From positions 2,688,001 to 2,752,000 of the forward strand of contig OZ244744.1 in the NCBI GenBank assembly GCA_965219455.1: a stretch of DNA of 64,000 nucleotides. The letters are read 5' to 3'. The notes under the pieces were generated by a model, which saw nothing but the letters and a program-made list of their open reading frames with translations, was not told the DNA's origin and did not search any database. The position numbers were made by a program, and so were the translations under genes. This DNA comes from Candidatus Latescibacterota bacterium (GTDB lineage Bacteria; Latescibacterota; UBA2968; GCA-2709665). Shown piece by piece: positions 25,618-46,690 of this stretch (its first letter is position 1; each line of letters begins with the position of its first letter).

Positions 25618-25830
25618 TCAAAAAGAGAAAAATCACGTGCTGGATATACCGCTTCTTCTGGATTTCTCGATGACGGCCAAATGCATATTCCATTCAGGTT
25701 CCCGCGCGGGCCCTTCCATCGCGTCGCAGGCGCGAAAGAACGCCTCGAGGTCCGCCGGTAACTCGAAGGGCTGGGACCGCTGCTGTTCCTCGAGCCGCTG
25801 GCTGGCGGCGGTTCTAATCCACGCGCTCAA
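25618..25830 (-). pseudogene. 5'-truncated antitoxin-like fragment followed by a toxin start stump (MIFLF*)
   Basis: LSAWIRTAA...DLEAFF...EPEW reads like the C-terminal half of an RHH/CopG-type antitoxin. GTGA overlap leads into MIF, a typical PIN/VapC start. Overlaps the hsdR stop. Confidence 0.45.
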
Positions 25831-28800
25831 CGATTTGAACCGGCAAACCAGGAACGGATGTATACCCTGGTGTCGTCTGACGAGAGCTTAACGGTTCCCG
25901 GACCGCTGCGCACGAAAAAGTCACCTCCGTTTTCCTTCTCAAGTCCCTTCCAGGAGAGGAACACCGGTTCCGGGCTCCGCTGGCAGCTCAGCACGCATAC
26001 CGCCTTGCCGTCGACGATCTGAACTCCGGGATCGATGCATGTGCCGGCGCGGTCGCCGAGCCCGTTGCGCACGACCTGTGCGAGATGCAGCATGAATTTG
26101 TCTTCGGTATCTAGCCGGTCGCGATCTATTCCAACGACGGCGCCGTCGTCGGTGACGCCTATCAGAAGGTCTCCGCCCTCCGTGTTCAGGAATGCGGCGA
26201 TCGTCTTGAGCGCCGAATGGGTGACGCGTTTGTCGTCCTTGCGGTCTTCATTCAGGTTCCAGCGCAACGTCGATTTAAATTCCAGGGTTTTCGACTCGCC
26301 CTGTTTGATGAGGTCCTCCGCGCTACGGTTCGTGCGCAAGAATTGGTCGAAGAGGACGTCTTTGATGACGTTTCCAAAAGCGCGGTCGTCGGTGATCCGT
26401 TTGTATAGATCGAAATTGGAATCCACAATACCCTGGATGGTCTCTTCAACCTTGTGGTCGAAGGTCAATCGCACATTTTCGCGCGTATTCACCCGCGCCG
26501 CGGCGCCGAGTGCAGCGTCTTCAGAAAGTCTGTCCATCATCTGGCCGAGGGTGGCGCGGTGCTCCTGCCCGAGTTCGACCCCGAAGCGCTCGTTCAATTC
26601 GGCGATGATCCGCGAAAGGGTCTCCATGTCTTCCGGCTGTAGCAAGTATGTGTCCTTTGTGCCGACGGGCTCGAGCTTCGTCGTCCCTCGCTCCAGGTTT
26701 ATTTTGCCTTTGCGGGTTTCCTGAATCCGATACGACTCCATGTCGATATTCTGCTGAACTTCGAGCGGCAACTCGGCCCGGTCCATTGGCAACAGGCGGC
26801 GTAAGTGTCGCGAGAAGACGTACAGCTTCTCCAGATCGACGTCGGCGAACGGAAGGATTTGTGCGAGAAACGCGTAAAGCCGCACGTAGTCGACAAGTTG
26901 GCCCCGGAATTCCTGCTGTTCACATTCTTCTAACGTCTGAAATCGGTGGACCACGGGATTGAGCGCGGCATGAAGCTGGTCCTGTGTGGCGGCCTTGTCG
27001 AAAAAAATCCTTGCGAATTCATCCACATCGGACTGATCGTATACCGGGAAGTCGGACAGACGCATCTGGATCTCGTAGAGCAGGTTGGGATCGGTCGCCT
27101 CCGACAGCAGTGTTGTTTCGAAATAAGGTTCGAAGGCCTCCTTGATGTCGTCGGCATCGTTGGCGAAATCGAGTACCATCGTGCCGTCTTTTCCTGGTTC
27201 TGTACGGTTAATCCGTGAGAGTGTCTGCACCGCGTTCACGCCTCCGAGTTTTTTGTCGACGTACATCGCGTGCAACAGCGGCTGGTCGAAACCGGTCTGG
27301 AATTTATTCGCACATATCAGGAATCGATATTCCGATCCTTTGAATGTGTTTGCGGTCTGCACCTCGGAAACGCCGTTCATGCCGGGCTCGGTATAGGACT
27401 TGCCGCCATCCTCGACGGTGCCCGAGAACGCAACCAGCGCTTTGAACGCGTGCCCCTGTTCGGCGAGGTATTTGTCCACCGCTAGCTTGAAGCGAACGGC
27501 GTGCAGTCGCGAGCGGGTGACGATCATTGCCTTTGCCTTCCCGTCGATCTGGGTGTGCACCTGCTCGACAAAGTGGCAGACCATGATGCGTACCTTCTCG
27601 TCAATCGCGTGCGGGTGAAGTTCAACGTACGATTTGAGCAGGAAGGTAGCCTTGCGTTTGTCATAGCGCGGGTCGTCCTCCACCTTCTTCAATAGCCGCC
27701 AATAGGCTTTGTAGGTCGTATAGTTCTCCAGGACGTCTAGGATGAACCCCTCCTCGATGGCCTGCCGCATGCTGTAGAGGTGAAACGGTTCGAACGATTC
27801 GTCCGTGCGGCGGGTGCCAAAAAGCTCCAGCGTCTTGGGCTTGGGGGTCGCGGTAAAGGCGAAAGTCGAGAGATTGGGCAGGCGCCCGCGCTTCTCCACC
27901 TCCGCCAGGATCGTGTTTTCGAGTTCCTCTTCTGGCGTCTCGGCCCCGGCTTCCTCGTCCTCCGCCTCTTCGAGAGACCCCGTCGCCAACACCGCCTTGA
28001 GGCTCTTGGTGCTCTCGCCGGATTGGGACGAGTGCGCTTCGTCGACGATCAAGGCGAAGCGCTTGCCCGGCAACTGGCCGATTTCCTCGGCGATCACCGG
28101 AAATTTCTGCAGCGTGGTGACGATGATTGTCTTGCCGGCTTCGAGCGCCTCTTTGAGTTGGCGCGAGGTGGTGTCGATATTTTCCACAACGCCCAGGGTC
28201 TGCTCGAACTGGCGCATGGCGCCCTGGAGTGCGCGATCGAGAATGCGCCGGTCCGTGATAACTACGATCGAATCGAAAACACGGCGGTCTTCTATGTCGT
28301 GCAGCGTGGATAACTGGTGGGCGAGCCAGGCGATGGTGAACGTCTTACCGCTTCCGGCGGAGTGCTGGATGAGATAGCGCTGCCCCGCGCCGGTCTTACG
28401 GGCATCCGATATGAGCTTTCGCACGCAATCGAGTTGCTGGTAGCGCGGGAAGACCAGCGATTTCCTGCCGGTCTTGCGGCCGTTCTCGTCTTCCTCCTCG
28501 ACTTCGTGGACAAACTGGCGCACCAAATCAAGCACACTGTCCCGCGACCATGTATCCTCCCAGAGATACGAAGTGGCATAGCCGGATTGCGTAGGCGGCA
28601 CCGGCGGGTTTCCCGCGCCGCGGTTGTTGCCCTGGTTGAACGGAAGGAAGCGCGTTTTGGGACCGGCGAGACGTGTGGTAACGTAGACCAGATCCGGATC
28701 AACCGCGAAATGCGCCAGGCATCGGCCAAAGCCGAACAGCGGCTCACGCGGATCGCGGTCTGTCTTATACTGGCGGATCGCGTCCTCCACGGTCTGGCCG

Positions 28801-29354
28801 CTGAGCAGGTTCTTGAGTTCAGCGGTGAAAATGGGAATGCCGTTCAGAAACAGAACCAGATCGAGGCTCTTCTCGTTCTTCGTGCTATAGCGGATCTGAC
28901 GCCCGACGGCAAAGAAGTTGGCCATATACAGCCGGCGCGTCTCCTCGTTGAGCCCGCTGGCCGGCCGGAAATAGGCCAAACGGAACGTACAGCCCATATC
29001 CTTGATCCCGTTCCGCAGCACGTGGAGGACGCCCCGGCGTTCGATTTCCGATGATAGGCGCCTGAGAAAGCGTTCTCTGACCTCGGCGCCGTAATGCTGG
29101 GACAGCTTCCGCCACTCCTTCGGCTGCGTCGCTATAATGAAATCCAGAACATCTCTAGGCAGAAGGCAGAGCGCTCGGTCGTAGTCTTCCGGTTTGCGTT
29201 TGAAATAACCGCCGGGTTCCATCCCCTGGCCGCCTATGGGCAAGCCGCCTTCACGCACACCGGTCGGAAGACCCCCCGACTCATCCTTGCCATGGCCAAG
29301 CAAAGCCGCCTCGATGGCGTCTTCGAAGGCTTTTTCAGATACAACCGGACTCAT
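25827..29354 (-). CDS. hsdR: Type I restriction subunit R fused to C-terminal AlbA_2/Schlafen domain
   Basis: D..LFLNGIP...ELK nuclease motif, HSAGSGKT, DEAH, FTATP, QTGFD. C-terminal ESKTLEFKS...IAAFLNTEGGDLLIGV. Confidence 0.93.
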   Translation of the reverse strand: MSPVVSEKAFEDAIEAALLGHGKDESGGLPTGVREGGLPIGGQGMEPGGYFKRKPEDYDRALCLLPRDVLDFIIATQPKEWRKLSQHYGAEVRERFLRRLSSEIERRGVLHVLRNGIKDMGCTFRLAYFRPASGLNEETRRLYMANFFAVGRQIRYSTKNEKSLDLVLFLNGIPIFTAELKNLLSGQTVEDAIRQYKTDRDPREPLFGFGRCLAHFAVDPDLVYVTTRLAGPKTRFLPFNQGNNRGAGNPPVPPTQSGYATSYLWEDTWSRDSVLDLVRQFVHEVEEEDENGRKTGRKSLVFPRYQQLDCVRKLISDARKTGAGQRYLIQHSAGSGKTFTIAWLAHQLSTLHDIEDRRVFDSIVVITDRRILDRALQGAMRQFEQTLGVVENIDTTSRQLKEALEAGKTIIVTTLQKFPVIAEEIGQLPGKRFALIVDEAHSSQSGESTKSLKAVLATGSLEEAEDEEAGAETPEEELENTILAEVEKRGRLPNLSTFAFTATPKPKTLELFGTRRTDESFEPFHLYSMRQAIEEGFILDVLENYTTYKAYWRLLKKVEDDPRYDKRKATFLLKSYVELHPHAIDEKVRIMVCHFVEQVHTQIDGKAKAMIVTRSRLHAVRFKLAVDKYLAEQGHAFKALVAFSGTVEDGGKSYTEPGMNGVSEVQTANTFKGSEYRFLICANKFQTGFDQPLLHAMYVDKKLGGVNAVQTLSRINRTEPGKDGTMVLDFANDADDIKEAFEPYFETTLLSEATDPNLLYEIQMRLSDFPVYDQSDVDEFARIFFDKAATQDQLHAALNPVVHRFQTLEECEQQEFRGQLVDYVRLYAFLAQILPFADVDLEKLYVFSRHLRRLLPMDRAELPLEVQQNIDMESYRIQETRKGKINLERGTTKLEPVGTKDTYLLQPEDMETLSRIIAELNERFGVELGQEHRATLGQMMDRLSEDAALGAAARVNTRENVRLTFDHKVEETIQGIVDSNFDLYKRITDDRAFGNVIKDVLFDQFLRTNRSAEDLIKQGESKTLEFKSTLRWNLNEDRKDDKRVTHSALKTIAAFLNTEGGDLLIGVTDDGAVVGIDRDRLDTEDKFMLHLAQVVRNGLGDRAGTCIDPGVQIVDGKAVCVLSCQRSPEPVFLSWKGLEKENGGDFFVRSGPGTVKLSSDDTRVYIRSWFAGSNR

Positions 29355-30819: not shown

Positions 30820-30867
30820 CTAACGGATATATCAAAAGTTGACAAATGGCGTTAGATTATCTATCTT
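30820..30867 (+). promoter_or_regulatory. Sigma70 promoter with candidate operator
   Basis: TTGACA(30839)-17bp-TATCTT(30862); inverted half-sites CTAACG (30820) and CGTTAG (30850) flank the -35. Confidence 0.55.
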
Positions 30868-30955
30868 TCAAAATAGGATTATGTCTTCCGATGACGATCG
30901 CCGATTTTGCTCAGGAAAATTTGGCGCGAATCTCCGGCATGATCTTAGGGGCGAG

Positions 30956-32221
30956 ATGGCAATTGACCAAAGAATGCTGGCCCAGAGGCTTAGGCGGGCC
31001 AGAGAAACCAGCAGCCTGACCCAGGACGACGTTGCGAGCCACCTCGGAGTTTCGCGCTCCACTGTGGCTCAGATCGAACTAAGTAACCGTTCGGTCACGG
31101 GTATCGAACTGTATCGCCTTGCCACCCTCTTCGGTATGGATCTGCAGAGCCTTTTGGCAGAGGAGGAACCGGAAAAGGAGAGCGCACTCGTCGCGTTGTA
31201 CCGAGTTCACCCGGACCTGTCGAGCACGGAGGATCTGGGAGAGCCACTCCGCCGGTGCCTGGCTCTGGGCCGGGAGATGACCAGACTTGAAGAACTGCTG
31301 GATATTGACCGCGACCTCGTTACTGTGGCTGCCTACCCACTTCCGCAACCACGCACCACATGGGAAGCTATACAGCAAGGTGAACGGGTCGCCTCGGAAG
31401 AACGCGGACGCCTAGGGCTCGGACTTAGGTCAATCTCCGACATCGCCCAGCTACTCGAATCACAGGATGTTCGTACTGCCTTGGTCACGTTGCCGGACGA
31501 CGTCTCAGGCTTTACCCTCATCAAGCAAGAGATCGGAGTACTAATCGTAGCAAATCGGGAGCACCATATCTTTCGCAGGCGATTCTCATACGCACACGAG
31601 TATTGTCACGTACTTATCGACCGTGTCGAAGGTGGTTTGGTAAGTCGAGCAGACGACCGTGATCAGTTACGTGAGGTCCGCGCTAATTCATTTGCCGCCA
31701 GCTTTCTAATGCCTGCCGAGGCGGTGCGCCAGTTTATCCACGCATCCGGAAAGGGGCGGCCCAGCCGCCTGGAAGCCGAAGTATTCGACGAGAGTACGCC
31801 AATTCGCGGGCGCGCTCGATCTACCGCAGGAAGCCAGAAAATACAGCTGTACGATGTAGTGCGGATGGCGTACCACTTCGGCGTCAGCCGAGTCGCCGCA
31901 TGCTATCGGCTGAGAAGCACTCGACTGCTTACAGCTACCGAGCTCGAGAGTTTGTTGGAACAAGAGAATATGGATAAGGGCCGTAAACTGGAGCGACTTA
32001 TGGGTATTCCGGAACCAGACCACCAAGCTCTGCGCAATGAGTTCCGGGACCGCTTTGTCGGGTTAGCTCTGGAAGCATTGAGGAGGAAGAGAATTTCGCG
32101 TGCCGAACTTATCGATTTAGTAGGCATGTTGGACCTGGATGCCTGCGAAGTGGACCAGGCTGTTTCCGACCTGCAACTCGACGACGACGGTAGTACCGAC
32201 GATTACGCACGTTGGACATAG
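30956..32221 (+). CDS. XRE HTH-ImmA/IrrE (M78) metallopeptidase fusion regulator
   Basis: LTQDDVASHLGVSRSTVAQIE HTH; RRFSYAHEYCH and EVRANSFAASFLMP. Confidence 0.92.
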   Translation: MAIDQRMLAQRLRRARETSSLTQDDVASHLGVSRSTVAQIELSNRSVTGIELYRLATLFGMDLQSLLAEEEPEKESALVALYRVHPDLSSTEDLGEPLRRCLALGREMTRLEELLDIDRDLVTVAAYPLPQPRTTWEAIQQGERVASEERGRLGLGLRSISDIAQLLESQDVRTALVTLPDDVSGFTLIKQEIGVLIVANREHHIFRRRFSYAHEYCHVLIDRVEGGLVSRADDRDQLREVRANSFAASFLMPAEAVRQFIHASGKGRPSRLEAEVFDESTPIRGRARSTAGSQKIQLYDVVRMAYHFGVSRVAACYRLRSTRLLTATELESLLEQENMDKGRKLERLMGIPEPDHQALRNEFRDRFVGLALEALRRKRISRAELIDLVGMLDLDACEVDQAVSDLQLDDDGSTDDYARWT

Positions 32222-32349: not shown

Positions 32350-33489
32350 ATGCATACAATGACCTTTTTCCCGTTGGGAAACGCCGATTGCTGCCGGATT
32401 GAACTGTCGTGTGACCGCATTATCCTTATTGATTTCGCGGCAACCAAAGACGAAAATGACGACTATGACCTTAGGTGTAACCTTCCGGAACTTCTCAAGG
32501 ACGGCTTGAAGAAGAAGAATCGTGATTATTTCGATGTGGTAGCGTTCAGCCATCTGGATAAAGATCACTTCAAGGGGGCCTCCGACTTCTTCTACCTTGA
32601 ACATGCGAGGAAGTACCAAGTCGGAGAACGTATAAAGATGAACGTAATGTGGGTACCTGCTGCGTTTATCACGGAGGTGGGTCCAGACGACGACGAAGCG
32701 CGCGTCTTGCAGAGGGAGGCCCGACACAGATTCCGTCAGAGTAAGGGGATCCGCGTCTTTTCCCGGCCCGAACGGTTGAAGAAGTGGTGCGAAAAAAACG
32801 ACATCAAGCTTGAAGACCGGCTTCACTTGATAACCGATGCGGGAAAGACCGCGCCGGAGTTTTCCCTGAGAAAACATCAGATCGAGTTTTTCGCTCACTC
32901 TCCATTTGCGATCCGTCAGAACGAAAACACTGTCGAGGACCGCAACGAGGACTCGCTTGTGCTGCATGCAACTTTCCGTGTCGCAGGCGTACATACCAAA
33001 GCGCTGATGCTGGCTGATTCCACCCATGAAGTGCTTTCACAGATCGTAGACATCACCGAGTCCAAGGGTAACGAAAAATACCTTGAGTGGGATATCGTGA
33101 AGATTCCCCACCACTGCAGCTATCTTTCCATAGGATCCGAAAAGGGGACAAACAAAACCACGCCCGTTTCTCAGGTGGCGCGGCTATACGAAAAAGAGGG
33201 ACAGCATGGGGCGATCGCTGTGTCAACAAGCAAGCCAATTCCCCACGCAGGTAGCGACGACGACAAGGACTCGCAGCCACCCCACCGACAGGCCGCGAAT
33301 TATTACAAGGACGTCACGCGTGCCCTCAATGGCCAATTCGTCGTAACGATGGAACATCCATCGAGTAACTCTCCTAAGCCGTTGGTGATTGAAATCGGAC
33401 AAAGCAAAGCGACACTGAAAAAGAGTGTAGCGAGCACGGGAATAATCGCTACATCAGGTCGTGCAACGAGGGCAGGTTGGCAACGATGA
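32350..33489 (+). CDS. Metallo-beta-lactamase-fold hydrolase ending ...RAG-WQR
   Basis: FFPLGNAD, SHLDKDH, NEDS, LAD, KIPHHCS (ComEC-like MBL motifs); GGAG RBS before ATG 32350. Confidence 0.85.
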   Translation: MHTMTFFPLGNADCCRIELSCDRIILIDFAATKDENDDYDLRCNLPELLKDGLKKKNRDYFDVVAFSHLDKDHFKGASDFFYLEHARKYQVGERIKMNVMWVPAAFITEVGPDDDEARVLQREARHRFRQSKGIRVFSRPERLKKWCEKNDIKLEDRLHLITDAGKTAPEFSLRKHQIEFFAHSPFAIRQNENTVEDRNEDSLVLHATFRVAGVHTKALMLADSTHEVLSQIVDITESKGNEKYLEWDIVKIPHHCSYLSIGSEKGTNKTTPVSQVARLYEKEGQHGAIAVSTSKPIPHAGSDDDKDSQPPHRQAANYYKDVTRALNGQFVVTMEHPSSNSPKPLVIEIGQSKATLKKSVASTGIIATSGRATRAGWQR

Positions 33490-35729
33490 GTTATTTCGAT
33501 GTCTCAGGGGACCAGGTACGGCCAGACGCCCTTGAGATCCCAAAGGCCGAAGATCTTGCGCTCAGTCTGTCGGCTGAGCGCATTGATTTCGCCCGGTTCG
33601 TCGAATGTCGCCGGCAGGATGAAATTGAGGTCGTGGTGTTCGACGTCGATGTCGAAATCGCACAAGTGCAGCGTCATCCGATCAAGGCAAGAGAACGTAT
33701 TTCCGCGGCATTTACTCGAAATGACGAAAACGTACCTGTCGTCCACGCCCTACGGAAGGACTTCCCGCGAGTGCCGCATCTCAACCTGCATCGGCAAGAG
33801 TACCCACGCAACCTCTGTATATATGCTGAACCATATGAGGAGATTAAACGCCGCTGGACATCACCGAGATTCGTACATGAAATCCGGCAATGGCTCGCGT
33901 TAACCAGCAAGGGGAAACTCCACCAGGACGACCAACCCCTTGAACCCCTTCTTGTGGATTTCCACGGGCACATTGTCCTTCCTTCTACCCAACAATTGGA
34001 GGAGCACCTACCAACCCCGCTAGTCGTAGCGCCGGTGAAATCGGACTATAGTAAAGGCCTTTTTCTGATCGCACTAACAGGTGAACCGCAGGAAGGACCG
34101 CCGTCGCTACTTGCTAGTGTACATCGTTGCGAACCTCAGACACATGGGGTTATTCATCAAATTCCGTCGACACTTGCGGACCTTGCTGCCATCACGAAAG
34201 ACGCTAAGTTCGACCTCATTTCTGACCTTCAGCAACGACTGGAGACTTGGCGTGACCAAGGCAGGCCGGTACTCGACTCCTGTCTTCTCCTCGTTCTTTT
34301 ATTTCCCAAAAAACGGGATGAAACAGACGTGATCGAAACAGTCGATAGTTGGGCGTTTTTCCTGTTGGACACTGAAGGAGACAAGGTTGGTGAGGGACTG
34401 GAAATTCGACGACTCGGCACCGAGATCGGCCTTTGGGATCTTCAGGACAATCACGTTGGTTTTCTCATGCAACCCGACACATCGAAAAACGGTCGAAATG
34501 TCGGAGTCGCAGTGCTGAATGTGGTTCGTCACTTCGATCGCTCAATGGCAGCAAGGCTAAATGGTGAGAACGAGGTGGGGGATGTTCGTGTTGTTGCAAT
34601 CGGGATGGGCGCACTGGGTTCACATGTCGCAATCAATCTTGCGAGAACAGGGTTTGGAACTTGGACACTGATCGATCACGACATACTATTGCCGCATAAT
34701 TTGGCGCGGCATGCCCTCGACGGTAGTTTTGTGGGCTGGAACAAGGCAGATGGCGTTGCACGCTTAGCGAATACGATAGTTTTCCGTTCCGATATGTTCA
34801 GCTCACTTCCAGTAAACGTACTTTCACCTGGACGGCAAACTCAAGAATTATCCAATTCGCTGGCTGAGGCCAATGTGATACTGGACATGTCGGCATCTGT
34901 TGGAGTTTCACGGATGCTTGCGCACGAATGCAATGGCACGGCCCGCAGGATCTCGTTGTTCCTTTCCCCGTCTGGGCAGGATCTCGTTCTACTCGCTGAA
35001 GATAAGCAACGAAACAGCACCCTGGATTCTCTTGAAATGCAGTACTACAGGGCCATCCTAAACGACCCTAGCTTGACCGGGCATATGATTAGGCCACCTA
35101 GCCGGTATCGCTATGCCCAATCCTGTCGCGATATCACAAGCCAACTGCCACAGCAAATGGTAGTGAGCCATGCGAGCACGGGAGGACGAGCGGTTCGTGA
35201 CGCTGTTCGGTGTAATAAAGCACAAATAACGATCTGGCGGACAAACGAAAACGGTGTCGCAAAACGCGTCACAGTTTCCGCCGCTCCAGTTGTGCGGAAA
35301 ACTACGGACAACTGGGCAATTATCACTGACAGGGAATTGATTGAAACCCTGGCGAGTTTGCGTAAATCTAAACTTCCAAATGAGACTGGAGGCGTTCTCC
35401 TGGGTTCTTTCGATATGGAGAGAAGAATCGTCTACATCGTCGATGTGTTGCCTTCACCACCCGATAGCGAAGAGTGGCCCACATTGTATATCCGCGGATG
35501 TGAGGGTCTTCGGAAGAAAATCACAGAAATTGAAAAGAAAGTGGACGGGATGATTGAGTACGTCGGAGAATGGCATTCTCATCCAGATGGCGCTGGCACG
35601 TCTCCCAGCGAGGATGATGGAAACGTACTCGCGTGGTTGCGGAAATTGAGACAAGCAGACGGTTACCCTGCCACGATGGCAATTGTCGCAGAATCAGGCA
35701 ACGTGGGATTTTATGTAGAGCAAATATAA
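33486..35729 (+). CDS. Prokaryotic E2 - E1/ThiF - JAB fusion protein
   Basis: E2: DFPRVPHLN...LCIY. E1: GMGALGS, DHD...HNLARH, distal YAQSCRD Cys. JAB: ETGG, EWHSHP..SPS..D. ATGA overlap with the MBL gene. Confidence 0.92.
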   Translation: MSYFDVSGDQVRPDALEIPKAEDLALSLSAERIDFARFVECRRQDEIEVVVFDVDVEIAQVQRHPIKARERISAAFTRNDENVPVVHALRKDFPRVPHLNLHRQEYPRNLCIYAEPYEEIKRRWTSPRFVHEIRQWLALTSKGKLHQDDQPLEPLLVDFHGHIVLPSTQQLEEHLPTPLVVAPVKSDYSKGLFLIALTGEPQEGPPSLLASVHRCEPQTHGVIHQIPSTLADLAAITKDAKFDLISDLQQRLETWRDQGRPVLDSCLLLVLLFPKKRDETDVIETVDSWAFFLLDTEGDKVGEGLEIRRLGTEIGLWDLQDNHVGFLMQPDTSKNGRNVGVAVLNVVRHFDRSMAARLNGENEVGDVRVVAIGMGALGSHVAINLARTGFGTWTLIDHDILLPHNLARHALDGSFVGWNKADGVARLANTIVFRSDMFSSLPVNVLSPGRQTQELSNSLAEANVILDMSASVGVSRMLAHECNGTARRISLFLSPSGQDLVLLAEDKQRNSTLDSLEMQYYRAILNDPSLTGHMIRPPSRYRYAQSCRDITSQLPQQMVVSHASTGGRAVRDAVRCNKAQITIWRTNENGVAKRVTVSAAPVVRKTTDNWAIITDRELIETLASLRKSKLPNETGGVLLGSFDMERRIVYIVDVLPSPPDSEEWPTLYIRGCEGLRKKITEIEKKVDGMIEYVGEWHSHPDGAGTSPSEDDGNVLAWLRKLRQADGYPATMAIVAESGNVGFYVEQI

Positions 35730-35757: not shown

Positions 35758-36459
35758 ATGAAAAACTGGTTTCCCTTCACCGATTATGACTTCTATGCCT
35801 ACTTGTCATCGGGTATGATTGTCCTGTTCGCCCTCGACTACGGCATCAACGACGGCGCCGTAATGTTTAGGAATAGTTGGCCTTTTGTTCAGGTCGTTTT
35901 CTTAATAGCAACGGCGTACATCGTTGGGCACATAATCGCCGGATTCGCGTCGGTTCTCCTCGAACAATGGTTGGGTCGCAGATTCTTGCGTTCTCCTGTT
36001 TCTGTGATGATGGATATGGGTGCCTCCCGATTTCGTGAGAGGGTCATTAGGTGTTTCTTCGCTGTGCGGTATTACGAGCCGCAATCTGAACATATCCGAT
36101 CAAAAATTCTGCAGAATGTAGCCGAAAGGTTAGGAAAGGAACCTGAGAGGATCGACAACCCCGAGGAAGTGTTTCAAGTCGCGTTTCCCGTAGCGCGAGC
36201 AGTTCCGGACGCCGCCGCACGTTTAGATGAATTTCGTAGGATGTACGGATTCTCAAGGAATGTCGCATTGTCGGGAGTGGTGGGGGCAGGCGCTTTGGTT
36301 TACAAGGCTGCGACGTCTAATGAGGTTACGCTATATTTGTGGGCGGCAGTTGTCGCCATTCTCTCAATCTGCATGTTTGGCCGCTTCGTGAAATTCTATG
36401 CCGCCTTTGGTTCTGAGGTATTGCGAACATATGCTTCAAAAGCCGAGGAGAAGAGCTAA
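35758..36459 (+). CDS. Uncharacterised membrane protein (~4 TM)
   Basis: Two N-terminal and two C-terminal hydrophobic helices around a soluble loop ending MYGFSRN; AAGGA RBS. Confidence 0.8.
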   Translation: MKNWFPFTDYDFYAYLSSGMIVLFALDYGINDGAVMFRNSWPFVQVVFLIATAYIVGHIIAGFASVLLEQWLGRRFLRSPVSVMMDMGASRFRERVIRCFFAVRYYEPQSEHIRSKILQNVAERLGKEPERIDNPEEVFQVAFPVARAVPDAAARLDEFRRMYGFSRNVALSGVVGAGALVYKAATSNEVTLYLWAAVVAILSICMFGRFVKFYAAFGSEVLRTYASKAEEKS

Positions 36460-37289
36460 TGAAGGTTGAAATCTTCGACGTTGAACATGGTGGTTGTGCG
36501 TTGATAACGGCCGACTCAGGCGCACGTATGCTTATCGATTGTGGTTCGAACTCATCAACCGGTTGGAGACCATCTCTTCATCTGCCGAGAAATGGGGTAG
36601 AAAACGTCGAAATGTTCGTGGTGACGAATTATGACGATGACCATGTGAACGACTTGCCAAACCTGCGGCGAGTTTCTGGTGGCCGCAGAACGGTAAATCT
36701 CAAGGCGCTTCTTAGGAACAGGACAATCTCGCCAGCGGCGCTCGTACGAATGAAAACGGATGGAGGTATGGGTCCTGGCATTCGGGAGCTCTTGGCGATG
36801 TTCAAGGAATATACAGGAGGGCCTCTTAAGGCTGACTGGGGGTCGCTGGAATACATTGTATTCTATAATTCCTATCCCGGTGACTTTAAGGACACGAACA
36901 ACCTCAGTCTCGTTATCTTTCTTCATTGCCACAATATGCATCTGGTGTTTCCGGGAGATTTGGAAAAGGCAGGATGGGAGAAGCTACTTGGAAACCCGGA
37001 ATTCGTTAAGGAACTAAAGACCGTGAATATCTTTGTTGCATCACACCATGGTCGCGAGAGTGGATGTTGTGAAGGAGTGTTTGAAATTCTTGGTGTAAAA
37101 CCATACGTTGTGATTTTTTCCGACGCAGGAATGCAATACGAAAGCCAGCGTACGGCGGACTGGTATCGTTCTCGAACCTACGGAATGAACTACAATGGGA
37201 AGAAGCGGCACGTTTTCACGACACGCCGTGACGGGAAAATCACTATCCAGGCGACACCGCGCCAAACGACAATTAGTACTGCTCGTTGA
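36459..37289 (+). CDS. Second MBL-fold (ComEC-like) hydrolase
   Basis: FDVEHG, LIDCG, TNYDDDH, NNLS, FPGDLE, SHHG; TAATG overlap and GAGGAG RBS. Confidence 0.87.
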   Translation: MKVEIFDVEHGGCALITADSGARMLIDCGSNSSTGWRPSLHLPRNGVENVEMFVVTNYDDDHVNDLPNLRRVSGGRRTVNLKALLRNRTISPAALVRMKTDGGMGPGIRELLAMFKEYTGGPLKADWGSLEYIVFYNSYPGDFKDTNNLSLVIFLHCHNMHLVFPGDLEKAGWEKLLGNPEFVKELKTVNIFVASHHGRESGCCEGVFEILGVKPYVVIFSDAGMQYESQRTADWYRSRTYGMNYNGKKRHVFTTRRDGKITIQATPRQTTISTAR

Positions 37290-37474: not shown

Positions 37475-38884
37475 TCAAACGGCCTCCCGCACGTCGATCT
37501 TTCCTGTCACCGCCGCGGATATGAGGGCTTGTCGGAGTTCCTTCAGGCGGTCGATAGCTTCTCGGACCTTCTCGACAAGAGCATCGATTTTGGCCGTCTC
37601 ACGGTCAAGGAAAGCGGCTATGGCGCGTTGTTCGGGAAGTGGTGGAAGCGCAAATACCCCCACACGAATAGAATCGCCAGTAAGCCCAAAACGTGTGATA
37701 CCGTTAGCTGCAATATGATACTGATCTCGCGGTCCGATTGCGGAAAATAATCTTCCAATGAACCCGCCGTAAGAATGAGCGTCAGGCTTGATGTGAGCCA
37801 AATGGTAACCGCACAAAACGCCAATAAGGTCTTCAGAGACTACCGATGGAACAGCAATGTCTGCCCAGGTCTCAGAATCCTTTGTTATTAAAACGTCCCC
37901 TGCCCGAAGGGAAAAACGACGCACCTGCTCCGACGTCGCAGTCGCAGGCATAAAATCAACGCGTTTGTCTATTAGTTCGTTGTAATACACGTCGACGTAA
38001 TTGCAAAGTCGGATATTATCTTCACGTTCCTTAGACTTCTTGTCCACATTGCTGAGTTGGACAGTGGCAAAGAATTTCAGTCGCTTAACCTCCCAATGCG
38101 CCGGAATCTCGCCGAGCCACTCGATACCCGAGTCCTGCATAGGCACGTCGGTATCGAGGCCTGCCTGCGCCGCAGCGTCGGCAGGCAGGCTCCGCGTGAC
38201 GGTGTGGCTGATGAGCGCGGCGCGCTTCTCCTGCAGCAACTCGATCAGCCGCTCCTTTTTCGCGACGAGGGCGTCGATCCTGGCCGTCTCGCGGTCAAGG
38301 AAAGCGGCAATGGCGCATTGTTCGGGGAGAGAAGGAACGGAGATTCTGAGGCTAGCGTAGCGTTCTGCACTCACATTTTGGATCGTTGCTTGAATGAAAG
38401 TGCTTTGAAGCCAGTCAGTGTAGCCCTGAGATTGCGTAAAGTATTCAACAAAGTTTGACAAGGCTTGAATATTGTCAAGACGCGCTCGAATCAGATACCC
38501 AGCATATGCTGCCTTGCCCCAACTGGGGTGGTACCGAAAAGTCTTTCCTACGGTTGCCCCGCTACGCGCGAATAAAATGTCGCCAGCGACAAGAAGATAG
38601 GGTTTTGCGATGTTCTCGGGAAGCGACCTGAAACTATCGTCCCTCAATGTTCCGTCTTCTCGAATGTCCGTGATTCGAATATAGCGCGGAAGATTGTTTT
38701 CAGTGTGTTCAGCGGGCTCGTTGGCACCATACTTCAAGGGTTCAGCCAGGAGATGTTTAAGGCGCTTTACCTCCCAATGCGCCGGAATTCGCCCAAGCCA
38801 CTCGACGCCGGAGTCCTTGTAGTCCGGGTACGGACTAATTCCATCATTAACGAAGTTCTGAACGTCAGACTGCCGGTGATTCAC
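37475..38884 (-). CDS. hsdS: Type I restriction specificity subunit
   Basis: Two DSGxEWLGxIPAHWEVKRLK and two EQxAIAAFLDRETAxIDALV repeats around two TRDs; ends AVTGKIDVR; GGAGG before GTG 38884. Confidence 0.95.
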   Translation of the reverse strand: MNHRQSDVQNFVNDGISPYPDYKDSGVEWLGRIPAHWEVKRLKHLLAEPLKYGANEPAEHTENNLPRYIRITDIREDGTLRDDSFRSLPENIAKPYLLVAGDILFARSGATVGKTFRYHPSWGKAAYAGYLIRARLDNIQALSNFVEYFTQSQGYTDWLQSTFIQATIQNVSAERYASLRISVPSLPEQCAIAAFLDRETARIDALVAKKERLIELLQEKRAALISHTVTRSLPADAAAQAGLDTDVPMQDSGIEWLGEIPAHWEVKRLKFFATVQLSNVDKKSKEREDNIRLCNYVDVYYNELIDKRVDFMPATATSEQVRRFSLRAGDVLITKDSETWADIAVPSVVSEDLIGVLCGYHLAHIKPDAHSYGGFIGRLFSAIGPRDQYHIAANGITRFGLTGDSIRVGVFALPPLPEQRAIAAFLDRETAKIDALVEKVREAIDRLKELRQALISAAVTGKIDVREAV

Positions 38885-39400
38885 ATAGCCTCCGTGTACC
38901 TGGCTAAAACCTCTAACATCGTCTTGGTGCCCAAACGCCCGCTGCCAGATCATCGACCATCGTTTGCCCGTTCCACCGCGTCACAAAAGACCCTGAAAAA
39001 CCGTTCAATCCACCTCGTCTCGCAGAATCTTTCGAATTTGATCGACAGGCAGGAATTTCTCCTCGCACGATTGGAAAAGATAAAGTGCTGGAGCTTCGTC
39101 CAGGTTGCGGAGGAGCGCAGCCGCCCTTTTTGGCCATTCCTCTTTATTGGTATCGCCAATCAACGCCCGGAACACCAGGTCTGTTGTCTTAAGCGTTCTG
39201 GAATCGACAGGAATATCTTCGATCCAAACAATGGAAGCGGCGTTTTCCCAGATCTTGTTAATTCTGACGGACCGAGCGACGTATGTGACTGAAGATCTGC
39301 GCCCTTATCGCCGATATACGTACGTTAGATTCTTACAGTAAGGCTTCTACGCAAGATGCGTACATGTTTAATCATGCTGCTTGCATACGGTAAGGTGTTG

Positions 39401-44172: not shown

Positions 44173-46326
44173 TCAGACCGTTGCGCCGGACATTTCCTTC
44201 AACATCTCCATTATGTCCTTTTCGATATGCTGAATATCGGCCTCGATCTCCGGAAGTGGCCGCGGCGGCTTATACTGGTAGAAATAACGGTTGAAGTTGA
44301 TCTCGTAGCCCACAAAACCGACCTTTCCGTCCCGATGATCGCGCTTCGATGTATCTATCCACGCTTCCGGAACATGAGGTTTGACCTCCCGCTCGAAAAA
44401 GGCGCGAACGCTGGCTGGGACGCCGTCGCCGTCCACGGGGTCCGCCCCATCGGCGAGCGGTACGCGCTCGGTGTCACGCAACTCCGGGTCGGGTTCGGGC
44501 GCGCCGTTTTTTCCCCGGCAGATCGTGGCTGTTTCATCGCGCTCGCCAAGAGCCGTGAGGATTGCCTTCTGCACCGGCGCCGCGAGTTTAAGACCGGCTC
44601 TCCGCGCCGCTTCCGCGAGTTCTGCCAGAAATACCTCGCGGTCTTTGTGAAGGGTGTCGGGCAGCTTCTCGAGCGTGGTCAAAATTTCCTGCTGCAGAGC
44701 GCGGCCATCGGCCTTTTCCCTGAGGCCGGCGTCGCCCCGTTTCTTCGATTTGGCCAGATTCTGAAATCCTGTCTGTTCGCTCAGCCGTGCGATGCGTTCC
44801 GCGCTTGCCTGAAAATTGAGTCGCAGCGGTCGTTCAACCGTAATTCTCCGATATCCGAATCGCTTCGTAGAGAAGACACGGCTGACGACTTTGTCTTCTT
44901 CCTCGCCGTCTTCAGAGACCTTCCGCGTCTCGCCATCGTGAAAGCCCCGCAGGAGACCCAGCACGTCGTCTGCTTTCCCAGGTGGTATCTCCCGCCGCTT
45001 GTCGCCCAGGCTCCGGCGCATCGGCTTCCAGAAGGTCGTGGCGTCGATAAGCTGCACCTTGCCCTTGCGTTCCGGAGCCTTGCGGTTGCTCAAAACCCAC
45101 ACATAGGTTGCAATGCCGGTGTTGTAGAAAAGCTGCTCGGGCAGCGCAATCAACGCCTCCAGCAGGTCGTTTTCCATAATATATCGGCGAATTTCACTTT
45201 CGCCGCTGCCCGCGTCACCCGTAAACAAGGGCGAACCGTTCATGATGATCGCAATGCGTGCGCCTCCCTGGTCCGGCGCCCGGGCGTGAGCGAGCATGTG
45301 CAGCAGGAACAGTGTTTGACCGTCGCTGATGCGCGGGAGCCCAGGGCCGAAGCGCCCGGCCGCGCCCCGTTCATGTTCGGACTCGACCGAGGTCTTGTCG
45401 CGTTTCCAGTCCTTTCCATAGGGCGGATTCGCGATCAGGTAATCAAAATGGTGGGCGGCATGCCGATCGTTTGAGAGCGTGCTGCCAAAAACGACCTTGT
45501 CCGCGTCGCGGCCCGTCGGATCCTTCATATACATGTCAGACTTTGAGACCGCCCACGTCTCCGGGTTCACTTCCTGGCCGAAGAGATGGATCTCCGCCTC
45601 CGGTTTGATAGCGGGGCGAGGGATTTCGCCGTTGCTTCGCATGCCCCTCGTAATGTGTTCCTTGGCGATGGTCAACATGCCGCCGGAGCCGCAGCACGGG
45701 TCGTAAACACTGCGCACAACGCCGGGTCGGGCGATGCGGTCTTTCTCACCGGCGAGCATGAGGTCCACCATCAGGTGGACCACGTCCCTCGGTGTGAAGT
45801 GCTCCCCGGGATTCTCATCCAGGGCTTCGTTGAATCTGCGGATCAACTCTTCAAAGACCGTCCCCATGGTCGCGTTGTCGATCCGATCCGGATGCAGGTC
45901 GACGTTCTTGAACCGCTCCAGCACCTGGAACAGCAGCCCCGCTTCATCGAGCTTGCTGATCGTGTTGTCGAGGTCGAATCGTTCCAACACCTCGCGCATG
46001 TTATCGCTGAAACCGGCGATGTAGTTTCTCAGGTTGGCGGCAAGTTGGGGCGCATCGGCCAGCAACGTGTCGAAGTCATAGCGTGAAGTGTTGTAGAATG
46101 CGAAGCCGGATGTTTCGCGCAGTTGCCCCTTCAGATCTTCAAGGCCGCGACCTCTCAACTCCGCCTGGCGTTTGAGCACTTGTTGCTTGGTCGGCGCAAG
46201 AACGCAGTCAAGGCGGCGCAGCACGGTCAGAGGAAGAATGACGTCCTGGTATTTGCCGCGCTTGAAGCTGTCGCGGATGAGATCCGCAACGCCCCAGATG
46301 AAGCTGACGATCTCACTGTGATTCAT
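44173..46326 (-). CDS. hsdM: Type I R-M N6-adenine methyltransferase
   Basis: FIWGVADL, GEHFTPR, DPCCGSGG, NPPY, FYNTGI, GYEINFNRYFY. Confidence 0.96.
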   Translation of the reverse strand: MNHSEIVSFIWGVADLIRDSFKRGKYQDVILPLTVLRRLDCVLAPTKQQVLKRQAELRGRGLEDLKGQLRETSGFAFYNTSRYDFDTLLADAPQLAANLRNYIAGFSDNMREVLERFDLDNTISKLDEAGLLFQVLERFKNVDLHPDRIDNATMGTVFEELIRRFNEALDENPGEHFTPRDVVHLMVDLMLAGEKDRIARPGVVRSVYDPCCGSGGMLTIAKEHITRGMRSNGEIPRPAIKPEAEIHLFGQEVNPETWAVSKSDMYMKDPTGRDADKVVFGSTLSNDRHAAHHFDYLIANPPYGKDWKRDKTSVESEHERGAAGRFGPGLPRISDGQTLFLLHMLAHARAPDQGGARIAIIMNGSPLFTGDAGSGESEIRRYIMENDLLEALIALPEQLFYNTGIATYVWVLSNRKAPERKGKVQLIDATTFWKPMRRSLGDKRREIPPGKADDVLGLLRGFHDGETRKVSEDGEEEDKVVSRVFSTKRFGYRRITVERPLRLNFQASAERIARLSEQTGFQNLAKSKKRGDAGLREKADGRALQQEILTTLEKLPDTLHKDREVFLAELAEAARRAGLKLAAPVQKAILTALGERDETATICRGKNGAPEPDPELRDTERVPLADGADPVDGDGVPASVRAFFEREVKPHVPEAWIDTSKRDHRDGKVGFVGYEINFNRYFYQYKPPRPLPEIEADIQHIEKDIMEMLKEMSGATV

Positions 46327-46468
46327 CGGTTCGCTCCACGATTTCGATTGGGGAAATAACGACGACCCCTTTACGCGTTTCCCGTTCAGTTCGCTAACAA
46401 TATAACACAAAATGGCAATAAAACAGAGAATGGCCTTTTCGCGTTCTAAACAGTGCCCGGTAGACGCA

Positions 46469-46495
46469 TGTAGGGGCAGGTTTGAAACCTGCCCC
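46469..46495. repeat. REP-like palindrome
   Basis: TGTAGGGGCAGGTTTGAAACCTGCCCC; near-identical to the copy at 47354. Confidence 0.8.
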
Positions 46496-46690
46496 GACTG
46501 GAGAGGCATCGGCAGGCGCGAAGGCCTTGTCTTGTTTTCGCATGTGAAGATAAGGAGGTTTCTTATTAGCGAAAACGGTTTAAATCGATAATAATAAACG
46601 CACGTAGACGAAAAAAGAACTGACTTGCATTATACAAGCCAGTTCAGGGTAGATGGGATAGCTGAAAAGGGGTTTCTGAATCAGCGCCGC

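Follow-up and report, generated by a model that had tools for sequence, protein, structure and literature searches.

E1 enzymes adenylate a free C-terminal carboxylate, and the locus described here raises the question of how such an enzyme would deal with a substrate whose conserved C-terminal glycine is not the last residue. In the window, i.e., the whole stretch of 64,000 nucleotides from a Candidatus Latescibacterota bacterium that was analysed, a gene for an MBL-fold protein is followed by a gene for a fusion protein with E2, E1 and JAB domains. Positions 33400-33489 of the plus strand translate as QSKATLKKSVASTGIIATSGRATRAGWQR and a stop codon, so that the MBL-fold protein ends in ...SGRATRAG-WQR, and its stop codon overlaps the start codon of the E2-E1-JAB gene, which confirms the first-pass annotation of this junction (Table 1). 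That annotation had also proposed that WQR is a pro-peptide to be removed by the JAB domain or, alternatively, that loss of a stop codon had extended or inactivated the protein.

A 6A-MBL gene pair in a defence-gene context

Judged by sequence, the gene pair at 32350-35729 is the known, named anti-phage system 6A-MBL. The MBL-fold protein matches the NCBIfam equivalog model NF058524.1 ('6A-MBL_enzyme') over residues 6-351 with 390.8 bits (cut-off 220), and the fusion protein matches the equivalog model NF058523.1 ('6A-MBL_cap2_3') with 630.9 bits (cut-off 320). Pfam has no family for the former and places Prok-E2_A, ThiF and Prok-JAB, in this order, on the latter; PADLOC gives only weak matches to LmuA, RTasMBL and Avs1a for the MBL-fold protein, and nothing beyond the generic CBASS E1-E2 and JAB models for the fusion protein. 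The MBL gene lies directly 5' of the E2-E1-JAB gene in all 15 related genome loci, and in the window the two genes overlap by 4 nt. The E2 cysteine, the glycine-rich loop and cysteine of E1, the JAMM motif and the MBL metal ligands are all present, and the architecture is no different from that of 6A-MBL systems at large. Operon type 6a, in which a specialised MBL-fold protein adjoins a triple-module E2-E1-JAB protein, was described earlier (Iyer, Burroughs and Aravind 2006; PMC1779556), and the name 6A-MBL is due to van den Berg et al. (2024, Cell Host Microbe), as given by a paper that cites them; conjugation of the 6A-MBL enzyme has already been stated in print. In our survey of the phylum, a 6A-MBL enzyme scored above the cut-off in 11 of 168 genomes, and the spread of the system is patchy, with one of the 14 other genomes of the genus having it.

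Table 1. Features of the 6A-MBL locus, in coordinates of the window
Feature	Coordinates	Strand	Evidence
Putative regulator, HTH + M78/IrrE-type peptidase, CapH/CapP-like and RmrA-like	30839..32221 (start putative)	+	Pfam HTH_31/HTH_3, Peptidase_M78
6A-MBL MBL-fold enzyme, 379 aa	32350..33489	+	NCBIfam NF058524.1, AF2 model, invariant residues
Disordered C-terminal tail, residues 360-379, VASTGIIATSGRATRAGWQR	33427..33486	+	pLDDT < 50
Gly376 codon GGT, predicted adenylated and conjugated residue	33475..33477	+	Gly in 120/120 close homologs
W377-Q378-R379, three-residue extension, putative pro-peptide	33478..33486	+	Junction comparison, 16 loci
ATGA overlap of MBL stop and E2-E1-JAB start	33486..33489	+	TGA 33487-33489, ATG 33486-33488; same in L001 and L003
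6A-MBL cap2_3 protein, E2-E1-JAB fusion, 747 aa	33486..35729	+	NF058523.1, AF2 model
E2-like domain, invariant Cys111	33633..34007	+	Pfam Prok-E2_A 9.1e-23
E1 ThiF-type adenylation domain, glycine-rich loop G373/G375/G378	34554..34931	+	Pfam ThiF 2.3e-12
JAB/JAMM metalloprotease domain, E633, H697, H699, S708, D711	35334..35624	+	Pfam Prok-JAB 1.1e-09

The pair forms a plus-strand insert inside a minus-strand type I R-M operon (25827-46509), with the order HsdM (44173-46509), AAA_21 ATPase, AbiEii, HsdS (37475-38953), the insert, SoFic (match 4.2e-115) and HsdR (25827-29354), and it is this defence-gene context that suggests the putative anti-phage role of the pair in the window. The putative regulator is the gene immediately 5' of the MBL gene and matches the PADLOC models RmrA (5.9e-25), capP (9.9e-16) and capH (2e-05); a copy with 86% identity is found upstream of the pair in the related locus L001, where HsdR, SoFic and HsdS, besides the regulator, also surround the pair. 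Directly downstream of the pair, a second two-gene module (35758-37289, plus strand) encodes two proteins, one of 233 aa without family match and one of 276 aa with an MBL fold, the latter matched by the PADLOC model PDC-M48B (7.4e-85) and, weakly, by ComEC. Neither protein of this module was matched in L001 by tblastn, so that it looks like a separate inserted candidate defence pair.

The start of the MBL gene was set at ATG 32350, because its homologs, mostly 376-379 aa long, begin with MH[KT]MTFFPLGNA; the 425-aa reading frame that begins at TTG 32212 was rejected as too long. A homolog search gave 3435 matches at E <= 1e-3, the best 120 of which were used as close homologs. The AlphaFold2 model of the enzyme (mean pLDDT 92.6, pTM 0.90) is an alpha-beta/beta-alpha sandwich with MBL-fold hydrolases as its best PDB matches, and not a beta-grasp, ubiquitin-like fold. 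The closest solved folds are the MBL domain of ComEC (9ic4, E 3.2e-13), the phosphodiesterase Pce and the nucleases CPSF73, INTS11 and RNase J. Residues H68, D72, H183, D223 and H255 are invariant in our alignment A1, the rows of which were picked by hand from the close homologs (49 of 120) and from more distant representatives (44 of 65, see below), leaving out those without a recognisable tail; for this reason the invariance of G376 in A1 is overstated. The MBL enzyme is likely to be the conjugated substrate of the system and its effector, either a phosphodiesterase or a putative nuclease.

For the fusion protein, a database copy with 100% identity (P0271, 747 aa) starts at ATG 33486 and not at TTG 33477. 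In an alignment of 80 homologs, C111 of the E2-like domain, the loop residues G373, G375 and G378, the catalytic C547 of E1 and the JAB residues E633, H697, H699 and D711 are invariant. Cys547 lies downstream of the ThiF domain on a loop modelled with low confidence (pLDDT below 50 at residues 543-546). The JAB motif HxH...SxxD is found in 114 of 120 fusion homologs; in three of the others the Ser is replaced, two are broken within the JAB domain and one is a fragment. Among solved folds, the AF2 model of the fusion protein (pLDDT 86.2) comes closest to Cap2 as seen in its complex with CdnD (7to3_A; 652 columns aligned, E 2.3e-25), with Atg7 and BubCD next, and a profile search of the sequences of solved proteins agrees in placing it closest to Cap2.

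The system thus resembles type II CBASS in that its E1 is closest to Cap2 by both sequence and fold, and in that an enzyme whose disordered tail ends in Gly or Ala, rather than a beta-grasp Ubl, would serve as substrate. It differs in that the substrate would be an MBL hydrolase, whereas in CBASS it is a nucleotide cyclase, and in that the JAB domain is fused to E2-E1. Searches with Pfam and PADLOC found no CD-NTase or cyclic-nucleotide effector among six neighbouring proteins. The system of the window probably works like CBASS without being a member of it.

The C-terminal tail and its glycine

Residues 360-379 of the MBL enzyme, which had been taken for a flexible tail, indeed have pLDDT below 50 in the AlphaFold2 model, and they lie outside NF058524.1, which ends at residue 351. 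Conservation of the C-terminal glycine, presupposed by the pro-peptide proposal, was borne out when the C-termini of homologs were aligned. The glycine is present in all of the close homologs (best 120 of 3435) as part of the sequence PRAG, a regularity well in excess of what chance would give. About three quarters of these proteins (91/120) end exactly at the glycine, and the remaining quarter (29/120), like the enzyme of the window, carry residues beyond it, 1-10 in number and arbitrary in sequence. Among these 29, the extension is one residue long in two proteins, two in three, three in 19, four in one, five in two and ten in two. The sequences are unrelated to each other (SQR, RRS, KES, RQI, WHR, RYI, WRS, K, RC, AL, GF, EANGS and VSVGRTLLPG among others), in agreement with the earlier view of WQR as an add-on; part of the family thus has the pattern of a Ubl precursor, i.e., a conserved glycine followed by non-conserved residues. 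The R-x-G of the tail also recalls ubiquitin, which ends in R-G-G.

At larger distances, a set of representatives at 50% identity comprised 670 matches at E <= 1e-3, the best 150 of which were considered; 65 of these were at least 340 aa long. Of the 65, 24 end in [RK]xG, 22 have [RK]xG followed by 1-7 residues, and 19 lack the pattern, several of the latter still ending in Gly and about five having an extra C-terminal domain of about 130 residues. In a MAFFT alignment of the 65 with the window's enzyme, the Gly376 column holds Gly in 61 and Ala in two, a generous number, as divergent tails are forced into alignment. Paralogs from the same taxonomic order, with only 25-27% identity, end in ...QPLSHG. 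Within the phylum, six of 10 full-length enzymes end at Gly, three have RxG followed by 3-5 residues (WQR, SQR and RVG-FGKYL), and one is without a Gly tail; the SQR locus (G011) has the tail and the junction of L001, may come from the same genome, and is to be counted once with it. Taken as sequence evidence, these comparisons support Gly376 as a conserved C-terminal residue of apparent functional relevance.

The residue at position -4 is an unusual one in the window. It is Thr373 (ACG, 33466-33468) in the window's enzyme and Pro in all of the close homologs (best 120 of 3435), with the codon CCG in 12 of 16 loci; among the 65 distant representatives (best 150 of 670), the column has Pro in 51 and Thr in one, and varies in the rest.

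Several observations concern the outskirts of the family. Two distant representatives (P0150 and P0182) end in R-x-Ala, which echoes the Gly/Ala alternative reported for type II CBASS CD-NTases. In another genome of the survey, an enzyme that passes the 6A-MBL cut-off (locus L027 of G106, approximately 1085902-1086990 of its contig) ends in ...KPPCEARR without a Gly tail, so that the tail is not universal. Five 6A-MBL-like proteins of 683-734 aa (P0391-P0394 and P0398) have about 345 additional N-terminal residues with no precomputed Pfam domain, and end in PRAG or PRAGW. Four proteins of 482-507 aa (P0145, P0153, P0165 and P0204), 36-45% identical to the window's enzyme, lack the RxG tail and have instead a C-terminal domain of about 130 residues with a common ...H[YW]V/IxC[YF][IV][IV]K... 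stretch; these proteins probably act in another way or together with another partner.

Could the conservation of RAG reflect a nucleotide signal, namely the ribosome-binding site of the next gene, rather than a feature of the protein? The stretch AGG GCA GGT is purine-rich and lies 9-17 nt upstream of the ATG. Across 16 loci, however, the three residues are written with five codons for Arg, four for Ala and four (all the Gly codons) for Gly, and the glycine is kept in the distant paralogs, where the junction is different. We therefore reject the ribosome-binding-site explanation; to judge from this codon variety, RAG is conserved at the level of protein and not of DNA. Another conceivable explanation is that E1 adenylates whichever residue is last, here Arg379, so that no trimming would be needed. 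This is a logical possibility, and we consider it barely credible: extensions end in residues as different as R, S, I, E, C, K, L, F, G and A, while RAG does not vary, and in Cap2 systems neither thioester nor conjugate forms once S, V, R or W stands in for the terminal Gly of cGAS, according to the Cap2 preprint.

Origin and age of the extension

The junction between the two genes suggests where the extension comes from. In 10 of 16 loci, the window included, the ATG of the next gene lies at nucleotides 12-14, the first nucleotide of the Gly codon being number 1. Seven of these 10 have a stop codon directly after the glycine and then a short spacer, such as GGT TGA AGC GA ATG in L002, and the other three have a sense codon at the position of the stop: GGT TGG CAA CGA TGA in the window, GGT AGC CAA AGA TGA in L001 and GGT TCA AGA GGA TGA in L003. 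In the latter three, the reading frame runs three codons through the spacer, which has a conserved length of 8 nt, to the TGA of the ATGA overlap. Three is the commonest extension length because read-through ends at the TGA that is formed by ATG and the following A. The first residue of the extension is one nucleotide step away from a stop codon in 26 of 29 cases, and three relatives (L002, L006 and L015) read GGT TGA exactly where the window reads GGT TGG. The comparison of junctions supports the origin of WQR by a sense codon TGG in the place of the relatives' stop codon TGA.

The extension is not a novelty of this genome. On a maximum-likelihood tree of 121 sequences, from which the extensions had been removed before building, the window's enzyme belongs to a 10-row clade with SH-aLRT 99 in which every member is extended, a finding that rules out a recent, private stop-loss lesion. 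This tree requires 16 changes in the state of the extension, at least 11 of them forced by well-supported branches, and a FastTree tree requires 17. When the window is compared with L001, which is extended as well, the dN/dS ratio comes to 0.137 in the MBL gene and 0.208 in the E2-E1-JAB gene, the proteins being 87% and 76% identical, respectively; both genes, to judge from these ratios, are under purifying selection. The stop-loss alternative of the first-pass annotation is thereby upheld as to origin, given the TGA of the three relatives, and fails as to inactivation, given a clade in which 10 of 10 are extended, low dN/dS in both genes (0.14 and 0.21) and catalytic residues that are kept. 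The pro-peptide and stop-loss readings are compatible with each other.

Proposed processing of the masked glycine

Removal of residues ahead of activation by an E1 enzyme is known from related systems. In Bil, the cut made by the JAB peptidase BilC falls between Gly97 and Ala98 of BilA; Gly97 sits in the E1 site and is unreactive because Ala98 blocks adenylation. In Bub, a JAB protease cuts the BubAB pre-protein. Cap3 of CBASS cleaves a fusion of cGAS with GFP precisely behind the final cGAS residue, and depends on residues on the cGAS side. With Bil, Bub and the precursors of ubiquitin, NEDD8, SUMO and Atg8, the window's system would share a reactive glycine and one or more residues removed by a dedicated peptidase before adenylation by E1; it is unlike them in that the modified protein is a 41-kDa MBL-fold enzyme and not a beta-grasp Ubl.

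Our preferred reading, to which we assign a probability of about 0.7, joins the two earlier proposals: the 6A-MBL pair would conjugate its enzyme through Gly376, and the JAB domain would, by analogy, trim WQR before adenylation by E1. Trimming by JAB ahead of adenylation is the best reading because of the precedents in BilC/BilA and Cap3, and the combination of invariant RAG, arbitrary extensions and an intact fused JAB domain makes an order of trimming followed by activation the most economical one. A single record of 1128 aa (P0396), in which the MBL protein runs in frame into E2-E1-JAB across the joint ...LRAG-RP-METV... and all three Pfam domains are present, was counted in favour of cleavage by JAB; it is either a natural polyprotein that would need self-cleavage by JAB after RAG, or an assembly error.

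The mechanism may be envisaged as follows. The 6A-MBL pair probably works like type II CBASS, with a hydrolase as the presumed substrate, the disordered tail of which, of about 20 residues, ends in R-A-G. In the lineage of the window, the stop codon after the glycine has turned into a sense codon, translation continuing through WQR to the TGA of the ATGA overlap, and the three-residue extension would block the adenylation of Gly376. The JAB domain would most likely trim WQR, licensing the enzyme; the E1 domain would adenylate the free carboxylate of Gly376, and the MBL enzyme would pass by thioester to Cys547 of E1 and Cys111 of E2, to be ligated to a target. JAB would in this lineage be an activator as well as a deconjugase. 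Since it seems to be independent of the residues after the glycine, the position of the stop codon would be nearly neutral, and extensions would come and go across the family, in keeping with the many gains and losses on the trees. The analysis establishes that the pair belongs to the 6A-MBL family, that the glycine is conserved, how the extension arose and that it is not recent, that the catalytic residues are intact and that the tail is disordered; that the enzyme is conjugated at Gly376, trimmed by JAB and active as a nuclease we infer.

JAB might not be the protease that trims. Short basic tails are commonly trimmed by unspecific proteases, and a host carboxypeptidase or another protease might remove WQR, the more so as the JAB protein of CBASS acts mainly as a deconjugase. 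We consider this very unlikely, as exact trimming to Gly from tails that differ in sequence and range from 1-10 residues to one whole fused protein is what would be expected of an endopeptidase recognising the RAG side, as Cap3 and BilC do. Since Cap3 is dispensable for defence by CBASS and antagonises it, an activating role of JAB is not the default expectation; here the window's JAB differs from Cap3, for it would be needed to unmask the glycine.

A different possibility is that the extension is never removed and disables conjugation, so that in this clade the MBL enzyme acts unconjugated or the system is decaying. Three observations can be cited for it: a blocked glycine cannot be adenylated, as with Ala98 of BilA; the extended MBL protein P0003 (extension RRS) appears to stand beside a fusion protein, P0284, in which the JAB domain is broken after ...YIRGCQGL; and the window's enzyme has Thr where the close homologs without exception have Pro. 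The pairing of P0003 with P0284 is inferred only from the equal size (20046) of their contigs, and the case may represent a decaying system or an assembly error. This possible pair, the Thr at position -4 and the absence of the tail in L027 were all counted against the preferred reading. On the other side, Cys111 of E2, Cys547 of E1 and the zinc ligands of JAB are invariant also in P0272-P0279, the inferred partners of extended MBL proteins; dN/dS of E2-E1-JAB is low between two loci that are both extended; and RAG is kept in 29 of 29 extended close homologs. Such retention of RAG and constraint on E2-E1-JAB would be unexpected were conjugation switched off, and we hold permanent disablement to be decidedly unlikely.

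A more ambitious form of the preferred reading can also be formulated. JAB would be an obligatory activator in the branch with the pro-peptide, the fused E2-E1-JAB protein trimming, adenylating and transferring its substrate; the pro-peptide would have been selected as a safety catch on a toxic MBL nuclease, and the way it has come and gone time and again (in at least 11 events among 121 sequences) would tune autoimmunity against readiness rather than reflect neutral drift of the stop codon. In this elaborate form, the proposal seems unlikely to us.

Significance for the 6A-MBL family

Much of the framework is known already, i.e., the named system, conjugation of the enzyme, and removal of pro-peptides by JAB in sister systems. 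In the main texts searched, the naming paper not among them, we found no description of a masked glycine or pro-peptide in 6A-MBL enzymes; the preprint on CapH/CapP makes no mention of MBL systems, and precursor processing was not found in the paper on Bacillus CBASS. Two points in particular were not met with in these texts: the glycine is masked in roughly one in four of the close 6A-MBL enzymes, and this masking results from the geometry of the gene junction.

For annotation and cloning, ATG 32350 should be used as the start of the MBL gene, and C-terminal tags or truncations would disturb the function of the enzyme. The presence of masked and unmasked members in one family amounts to a natural test of how machinery of the Cap2 type handles its substrates. 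If trimming by JAB is true, this domain serves in 6A-MBL systems as an activator, which Cap3 of CBASS does not, and inactivating it by mutation would have opposite consequences for masked and unmasked systems.
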